From NCBI RefSeq assembly GCF_003334385.1, contig NZ_QOWN01000234.1: DNA of 201 bases. One strand, 5' to 3'. Positions 1 through 201 of the stretch are shown piece after piece (the stretch's first letter is position 1; each line of letters begins with the position of its first letter). Both the position numbers and the translations under genes were made by a program. The DNA comes from Escherichia coli. Its GTDB lineage: Bacteria; Pseudomonadota; Gammaproteobacteria; Enterobacterales; Enterobacteriaceae. Below the pieces are notes generated by a model. That model saw nothing but the letters and a program-made list of their open reading frames with translations. It was not told the origin of the DNA and did not search any database.

Positions 1-53
1 GACACCGCCCTTTCACGGCGGTAACAGGGGTTCGAATCCCCTAGGGGACGCCA
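1..53 (+). tRNA. gltT: tRNA-Glu (anticodon UUC), partial: 5' end lies before the window; 3' end with encoded CCA at 51-53. Spacer tRNA of an rRNA operon (gltT/gltU/gltV/gltW family; the exact copy cannot be assigned).
   Basis: Seen in sequence: anticodon stem CCGCC (5-9) pairs with GGCGG (17-21) around the 7-nt loop CTTTCAC (10-16), placing TTC at 12-14. T-stem AGGGG (26-30) pairs with CCCCT (38-42) around the loop TTCGAAT (31-37), which carries the conserved T-loop motif. The 3' acceptor strand AGGGGAC is 43-49, discriminator G at 50, CCA at 51-53. The whole stretch matches my recollection of E. coli tRNA-Glu from about its position 24 onward. Gene symbol is a family placeholder, since the four rrn-linked copies are identical in the tRNA itself. 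Confidence 0.95.
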
Positions 54-86
54 CTTGCTGGTTTGTGAGTGAAAGTCACCTGCCTT

Positions 87-126
87 AATATCTCAAAACT
101 CATCTTCGGGTGATGTTTGAGATATT
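87..126 (+). promoter_or_regulatory. boxB-like stem-loop of the spacer antitermination region: long imperfect hairpin capped by a C(UUCG)G tetraloop.
   Basis: Seen in sequence: the outer stem AATATCTCAAA (87-97) pairs with TTTGAGATATT (116-126), 11 bp. A 2x2 internal mismatch follows (A98/C99 opposite T114/G115). The inner stem TCAT C (100-104) pairs with G GTGA (109-113), including one G-U pair (103:110). The loop is TTCG (105-108) closed by C104:G109. Its position directly upstream of boxA matches the boxB-boxA arrangement of rrn antitermination regions. The functional assignment is inference. Confidence 0.65.
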
Positions 127-141
127 TGCTCTTTAAAAATC
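127..141 (+). promoter_or_regulatory. boxA antitermination element (spacer copy) of an rRNA operon; RNA binding site for NusB/NusE(S10) in the rrn antitermination complex.
   Basis: Seen in sequence: TGCTCTTTAAAAATC at 127-141, which closely matches the rrn boxA core (leader form TGCTCTTTAACAATTTA) and the spacer boxA as I recall it. It sits right after a hairpin and inside an rRNA-operon spacer, as expected. Confidence 0.8.
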
Positions 142-167
142 TGGATCAAGCTGAAAATTGAAACACT

Positions 168-185
168 GAACAACGAAAGTTGTTC
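168..185 (+). other. Short hairpin with a GNRA (GAAA) tetraloop in the pre-23S spacer; probable structural or processing element of the rRNA precursor.
   Basis: Seen in sequence: GAACAAC (168-174) pairs with GTTGTTC (179-185), 7 perfect Watson-Crick bp, with loop GAAA (175-178). A T167:G186 wobble could extend it. Function is inferred. Confidence 0.55.
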
Positions 186-201
186 GTGAGTCTCTCAAAT
201 T

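Follow-up and report, generated by a model that had tools for sequence, protein, structure and literature searches.

The spacer boxA of an Escherichia coli rRNA operon and the pre-23S leader strand that adjoins it

Layout of the 16S-23S spacer

The window, by which we mean the whole stretch of 201 nt analysed here, is found letter for letter in the 16S-23S spacer of the E. coli K-12 operons rrnC (L005 2359-2559) and rrnE (L007 2398-2598), and its features are collected in Table 1. It opens with the end of a tRNA-Glu gene, annotated by RefSeq as gltU at L005 2336-2411, the end of this annotation falling on window 53; a run of ARAGORN on the window returned no tRNA, because the window edge cuts the gene. 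Overlapping the CCA end of this tRNA, a 7-bp hairpin (CACUUGC...GUGAGUG) is predicted at window 52-71, by MFE prediction only. Further along lie a predicted hairpin, the boxA and the 5' strand of the outer pre-23S leader-trailer helix, and the first base of mature 23S rRNA is expected at window coordinate 247.

The sequence is present in almost every E. coli genome that we searched. Megablast located window 1-201 in 5,425 of 5,426 complete genomes, the median per genome being 7 places, and these copies sit under or beside tRNA-Glu. The 80-nt stretch 122-201, which contains the boxA, was likewise found in 5,425 of the 5,426 genomes (median 7 places), and its best copy is at least 95% identical in every E. 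coli record but one. About 10 of the roughly 37,900 matching places for the two queries are on plasmids and the rest are chromosomal. In this genome collection, RefSeq annotates zero features under window 122-201, the spacer boxA included.

Table 1 Features of the 201-nt window (positions are those of the window)
Feature	Position	Strand	Basis
3' part of tRNA-Glu(UUC) with CCA end (gltU/gltV in MG1655)	1-53	+	Rfam tRNA match at 1-50; RefSeq gltU
Predicted boxB-like hairpin, C(UUCG)G tetraloop at 104-109	87-126	+	MFE folds, -16.0 kcal/mol
Spacer boxA, NusB/NusE binding motif, RNA form UGCUCUUUAAAAA	127-139	+	Match to leader boxA, match to consensus, conservation
Part of Rfam StyR-44 (RF01830), a 109-nt RNA running from window 131 to 239	131-201	+	81.5 bits for the part inside the window
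5' (leader) strand of the outer pre-23S leader-trailer helix	138-159	+	Cofolds, cognate duplex energies, covariation
Internal 23S-leader hairpin, GAAA loop, branching from the leader-trailer helix	164-188	+	Folds; inner helix of the Rfam StyR-44 model
Further leader-strand stretch TCTCTCA, predicted partner TGAGAGA in the 23S trailer	191-197	+	Cofold of rrnC 23S flanks; prediction only

Sequence and conservation of the spacer boxA

The initial annotation had read window 127-141 as the core of an rrn boxA. The letters there are indeed TGCTCTTTAAAAATC, the boxA proper being 127-139 (TGCTCTTTAAAAA); bases 140-141 (TC) lie outside it and form part of the helix strand that comes next. This 13-mer has a single mismatch to the E. 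coli leader boxA TGCTCTTTAACAA and is the only site in the window, on either strand, within three mismatches of it, with 0.10 such sites expected by chance. Window 128-138 also matches GYTCTTTAANA perfectly, which is the gamma-proteobacterial boxA consensus derived by Baniulyte et al. (PMC5725501), and 0 of 200 dinucleotide-preserving shuffles contained a match. The crystal structure of NusB-NusE-boxA has nucleotides 1-8 contacted base-specifically, and both binding and function are lost when boxA carries a transversion at position 2, 5 or 6 (PMC3177189). At these essential positions, to which the initial annotation had pointed as a check, the spacer copy is intact: window 127-134 (TGCTCTTT) is the same as EcBoxA nucleotides 1-8, there is no transversion relative to EcBoxA at positions 2, 5 or 6, and the sole change, C11 to A, falls at the N of the consensus, beyond the eight contacted nucleotides. 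The site is on the same strand as the rRNAs, 74 nt 3' of tRNA-Glu and 120 nt 5' of 23S. We are highly confident in reading window 127-139 as the boxA of an E. coli rrn spacer.

This spacer boxA is real and conserved, and it is an already known element, not a new one. It has been described since 1989, and Pfeiffer and Hartmann (1997, J Mol Biol 265:385) are said to have studied it experimentally, including the effect of its mutation. The value of the present check is the correct label: the site is real, and RefSeq carries no annotation of it.

Each of the seven rrn operons of MG1655 contains exactly two sites within two mismatches of boxA, one 5' of 16S and one 5' of 23S, and at the same threshold there is none on the opposite strand and none within the rRNAs of these operons. 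The leader site TGCTCTTTAACAA lies 144 nt 5' of 16S, and the spacer site TGCTCTTTAAAAA lies 120 or 111 nt 5' of 23S, the distance of 111 nt being that of rrnG (L003) and rrnD (L004). The initial annotation had placed a second boxA copy in the spacer before the 23S gene, which agrees both with these paired sites and with the literature, where boxA elements are described upstream of 16S and 23S alike (PMC5725501, PMC4807359) and a second nut-like element is located in the spacer (PMC10250234, PMC8632103, PMC6614801).

For the comparison between genera, one genome per species was scanned, and the scan was anchored on a 31-nt stretch of the 23S 5' end instead of on boxA, because circularity was to be avoided. 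Up to 450 nt upstream of the anchor were searched on the sense strand, and regions of at least 250 nt were counted. The perfect consensus occurs upstream of 23S in 82 of the 102 regions, that is, in 49 of 60 gamma-proteobacterial species and 21 of 28 genus labels, and as controls the antisense strand of the same 102 regions and an equal length of 23S gave 0 occurrences each. Conservation at the spacer position, the other check that had been proposed, is thus borne out in all seven operons and in most of these species. Position 11 of the boxA is C in Pantoea, Tatumella, Vibrio and Marinomonas and A in Escherichia, Citrobacter, Enterobacter, Cedecea and Pseudomonas. Near-variants that depart from GYTCTTTAANA at a single position stand at the spacer position in Xanthomonadales (GTTCTTTGACAA; L058, L066, L068, L069), Thiolinea (GTTTTTTAACAA; L093, L094) and Ferrimonas (GCTCTTTTACAA; L072). 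The most divergent E. coli copy retrieved, that of strain 7CC (L128), has C at position 11 of its spacer boxA, which is the leader form. One contig of Pantoea sp. 1.19 (L065, 9849-10098) carries two copies of the 23S 5'-end anchor 219 nt apart, and this pair is either a short duplication or an assembly artefact.

Five species of Acinetobacter (L008, L009, L035, L039, L077-L082, L119) had no consensus upstream of 23S and nothing within three mismatches of the 13-mer, in a search span of about 310-450 nt (650 nt in two species). Because Acinetobacter and a few other lineages are without the consensus upstream of 23S, boxA in its consensus form is not universal. A. junii has ATCATTAA in common between its 16S leader and its spacer, and Acinetobacter ANC 4633 carries ACTCATTAACA; these sequences may be divergent forms of boxA.

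Structures flanking the boxA

Directly before the boxA, the MFE folds place a 16-bp, interrupted hairpin (87-126) whose last base precedes the first base of the motif. The spacer hairpins of MG1655 have three sequences (one of Ile/Ala type, one of Glu type and, in rrnG, a variant of the latter), which without exception fold at the same place, and hairpins also fold ahead of boxA in the MG1655 16S leaders. Among the 86 unique gamma-proteobacterial spacers, the hairpin ends no more than 6 nt from boxA in 80; the mean dG of the spacer hairpins is -14.2 kcal/mol, compared with -6.8 kcal/mol for shuffles, and the inner stems differ between genera via compensatory changes. Judging from these folds, the predicted hairpin is the boxB-like element of the rrn nut-like site. 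In the predicted MFE folds, whether of the window or of the sequences flanking 23S, the boxA bases 127-137 stay unpaired, and some cofolds that include the 5S sequence are predicted to pair a few boxA bases.

As for the bases that follow the boxA, the initial annotation had suggested with reserve that 141-153 may be a boxC-like part of the element. No stretch at or near 141-153 comes within three mismatches of the conserved, GU-rich boxC sequence (UCUGUGUGGG), whose usual place is about 18-19 nt 3' of boxA, with the 16S leader as control giving a perfect match, and membership of 141-153 in boxC by sequence is therefore rejected. Over the whole spacer, the sole boxC match at three mismatches is 62-71, which lies 5' of boxA. 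The 6-mer AATCTG, common to leader and spacer, was also set aside, as by our estimate it is at chance level for sequences that long. The structural part of the suggestion holds: the outer pre-23S leader-trailer helix, to whose 5' strand 141-153 belongs, already begins within the final bases of the boxA, and boxC plays the same structural role 5' of 16S. For the "boxC-like" bases, the proper label is leader strand of the 23S processing helix. In the cofold of the 23S flanks, 138-143 (AATCTG) pairs with CAGATT, 146-148 (TCA) with TGA and 150-159 (GCTGAAAATT) with AGATTTTCAGC, and these trailer partners are located 40-70 nt downstream of the 23S 3' end.

The same arrangement recurs across genera. 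Of the 36 loci having both flanks, 35 show pairing between the trailer and the 30 nt that follow boxA, despite sequence differences between genera. For the pair counts given below, the trailer partner segments were chosen by RNAduplex, so that those counts lean to pairing. The comparison of cognate with non-cognate trailers is free of that bias, and here the mean duplex energy is -26.2 kcal/mol for cognate leader and trailer, -16.3 kcal/mol for trailers of other genera and about -14 kcal/mol for shuffled leader segments. Covariation was scored on two alignable groups, after one MAFFT alignment of leader plus trailer from all genera had lost structural register because the helix lengths differ. 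In the Enterobacterales alignment, 85.8% of the cells are paired (25-45% with the partner slid by 1-3 columns), two pairs changed on both sides, and the covariation score is 0.122. The alignment of Pseudomonas, Shewanella, Vibrio and Xanthomonadales has 87.4% of its cells paired (27-44% with the slid partner), seven compensatory pairs and a covariation score of 0.327, which exceeds the shuffled mean of 0.163 and is reached by 0 of 500 shuffles. The 16S leaders (L001-L007, e.g. L005 565-620) share this layout: directly after boxA comes the leader strand of a 31-bp duplex with the trailer (-49.8 kcal/mol), and boxC lies inside it. For this 16S helix, structure outweighs the boxC sequence (Warner et al., PMC10250234). 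Three points might be new: that leader strand and boxA abut strictly, that this abutment is conserved at the 23S site, and that it is connected with StyR-44, as discussed below.

Function and alternative readings

NusB/NusE bound to boxA RNA form, together with NusA, NusG, SuhB and S4, a ring at the polymerase's RNA exit channel (PMC8632103), and the leader and spacer nut-like elements are held to nucleate this complex, in a model of RNA delivery (PMC8632103, PMC6614801). According to that model, which is stated for both elements, the held nut-like element loops out the nascent rRNA (PMC6614801), and the 5' strand of the RNase III helix is thereby presented to the 3' strand on its emergence (PMC6614801). 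In vitro, reconstituted rrnTAC, the rRNA antitermination complex, suppresses both pausing and termination by Rho and remains bound for minutes, and its stable assembly with looping raises co-transcriptional RNase III processing of pre-16S (bioRxiv 10.64898/2026.03.17.712431). One group contests antitermination as the main role at rRNA (PMC4807359). The structural and single-molecule work concerns the 16S leader element, not the spacer element, with NusB/NusE seen on the same sequence 5' of 16S in crystal and cryo-EM structures (PMC3177189, PMC8632103). The initial annotation had interpreted the spacer motif as a NusB/NusE antitermination site; this interpretation is supported and the boxA identity stands, with the refinement that antitermination makes up only part of the present view, in which several groups favour an RNA-chaperone or delivery role.

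For the spacer copy, the binding of proteins, their re-loading and the weight of antitermination against delivery are taken over from the literature, including published studies of the leader copy. In the transcript UGCUCUUU, predicted to be single-stranded, would be bound by the NusB/NusE(S10) dimer, which together with NusA, NusG, SuhB and S4 would build or rebuild the rrnTAC on a polymerase about to enter 23S. RNase III excision of pre-16S would remove the first boxA from the transcript, and because that boxA is cut off, a new tether would be needed at the spacer. The modified polymerase would elongate faster and resist Rho, and the boxA-bound complex would keep the adjacent leader strand (138-159) close to the RNA exit channel while about 3 kb are transcribed; once the complementary 23S trailer has emerged, the leader-trailer helix would close and RNase III would cut. 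What we observed directly, namely the identity, position, strand and conservation of the boxA, its flanking hairpin and the abutting, covarying helix, fits the published picture for the spacer copy in every respect that can be tested on sequence, and adds to it the direct adjacency of leader strand and boxA at the 23S site across gamma-proteobacteria. The spacer boxA would contribute to efficient production and correct folding of 23S rRNA, which makes it relevant to ribosome biogenesis and to Nus factors and SuhB as drug targets.

Other readings of the motif differ greatly in how probable we consider them. That the motif arose by chance, or that it acts at the DNA level, for instance as a promoter or terminator in the spacer, is hardly credible: we found no point in support of this, and the consensus is missing from all shuffles and shows strict strand specificity, being absent from the antisense strand of the 102 regions. 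The promoter or terminator variant was rejected, as the window is without promoter-like or terminator-like sites. A purely structural or processing role for the motif is very improbable, even though the StyR-44 RNA has its 5' end inside the boxA (window 131) and the last two boxA bases (138-139) are predicted to pair with the trailer. Against it, bases 127-137 are left unpaired in the predicted folds, the motif is kept as sequence while the helices on its flanks vary and covary, and NusB/NusE occupy the same sequence 5' of 16S in the structures cited above.

The alternative that deserves serious weight, and to which we give a little less than an even chance, is that the spacer boxA is a Nus-factor loading site mainly for RNA delivery and chaperoning, so that the 23S leader strand is tethered for the leader-trailer helix to form, 23S being largely resistant to Rho without boxA. 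The leader strand adjoins boxA at the 23S and 16S sites and covaries with the trailer, as such a role would have it, and the argument against antitermination as the major role (PMC4807359), the published model (PMC6614801), the gain in RNase III processing of pre-16S through looping (bioRxiv 10.64898/2026.03.17.712431) and the lower 30S activity after insertions between boxA and boxC (PMC10250234) all point the same way. However, rrnTAC does suppress Rho termination and pausing in vitro (bioRxiv 10.64898/2026.03.17.712431), and older reporter work, as relayed by PMC4807359, describes boxA-dependent read-through of Rho terminators. This alternative is a matter of emphasis and is compatible with the identification of 127-139 as the spacer boxA.

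Compared with known systems, the spacer boxA is closest to the boxA of the E. coli rrn leader (UGCUCUUUAACAA), which belongs to a boxB-boxA-boxC nut-like element: 12 of 13 bases are the same, including all 8 read by NusB/NusE, and both copies have a hairpin before them and the 5' strand of a leader-trailer helix directly after. The spacer copy differs in having A instead of C at position 11, in lying 5' of 23S rather than 16S, in not being followed by a boxC sequence and in the distance to its helix partner, which is about 3 kb for the spacer site and about 1.7 kb for the leader site. In phage lambda nutL and nutR, a boxA (CGCUCUUA) bound by NusB/NusE and a boxB hairpin nucleate a termination-resistant polymerase (PMC2724277, PMC3177189). 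Relative to the lambda boxA, that of rrn carries one additional U and is bound by NusB/NusE with about 10-fold higher affinity (5-8 nM vs 80-90 nM; PMC2800207), and the rrn complex works without the N protein of lambda, SuhB and S4 participating instead (PMC8632103). The same GYTCTTTAANA is also described as recruiting Nus factors in boxA elements of protein-coding and CRISPR transcripts (PMC5725501, PMC7665894). These other boxA elements regulate protein-coding or CRISPR transcripts, whereas the spacer boxA is located in an rRNA precursor and is coupled to a processing helix.

Since the boxA and the pre-23S leader strand overlap by one or two bases across gamma-proteobacteria, in a layout that the 16S site shares, we also considered that the boxA may be a built-in hand-off device. 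NusB/NusE would hold nucleotides 1-8, the next bases would await the trailer, and closure of the helix with the RNase III cut would release the tether, StyR-44 being the footprint of this event. This extension of the spacer boxA reading is speculative, and we consider it rather unlikely. The delivery model itself is published for 16S (PMC6614801). StyR-44 was reported as Salmonella Typhi npcRNA 44, and its discoverers say that it is derived from a ribosomal operon and is possibly a maturation intermediate (PMC2943607). The full match to its Rfam model scores 124.9 bits at L005 2489-2597, and this score and that of the part inside the window (Table 1) are both above the gathering threshold of 54 bits. 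Its 5' end is within the boxA, after UGCU, and its 3' end is 8 nt before mature 23S. The position of the 3' end fits the RNase III cut by which 7 extra nucleotides are left on the 23S 5' end, and StyR-44 resembles an excised leader strand of 23S. The pairing of 150-159 with 196-205, which the Rfam model has as its outer local helix, was rejected, as its energy of -11.5 kcal/mol is no better than the -12.1 kcal/mol of non-cognate leaders; strand 150-159 with the 23S trailer reaches -23.4 kcal/mol. In E. coli strain 7CC, the differences other than that at boxA position 11 fall in the hairpin equivalent to 164-188, which carries compensatory changes and a 2-nt insertion. StyR-44 is a cloned 109-nt RNA species and, unlike the spacer boxA, not a functional class; its part within the window begins inside the motif and runs over 131-201.
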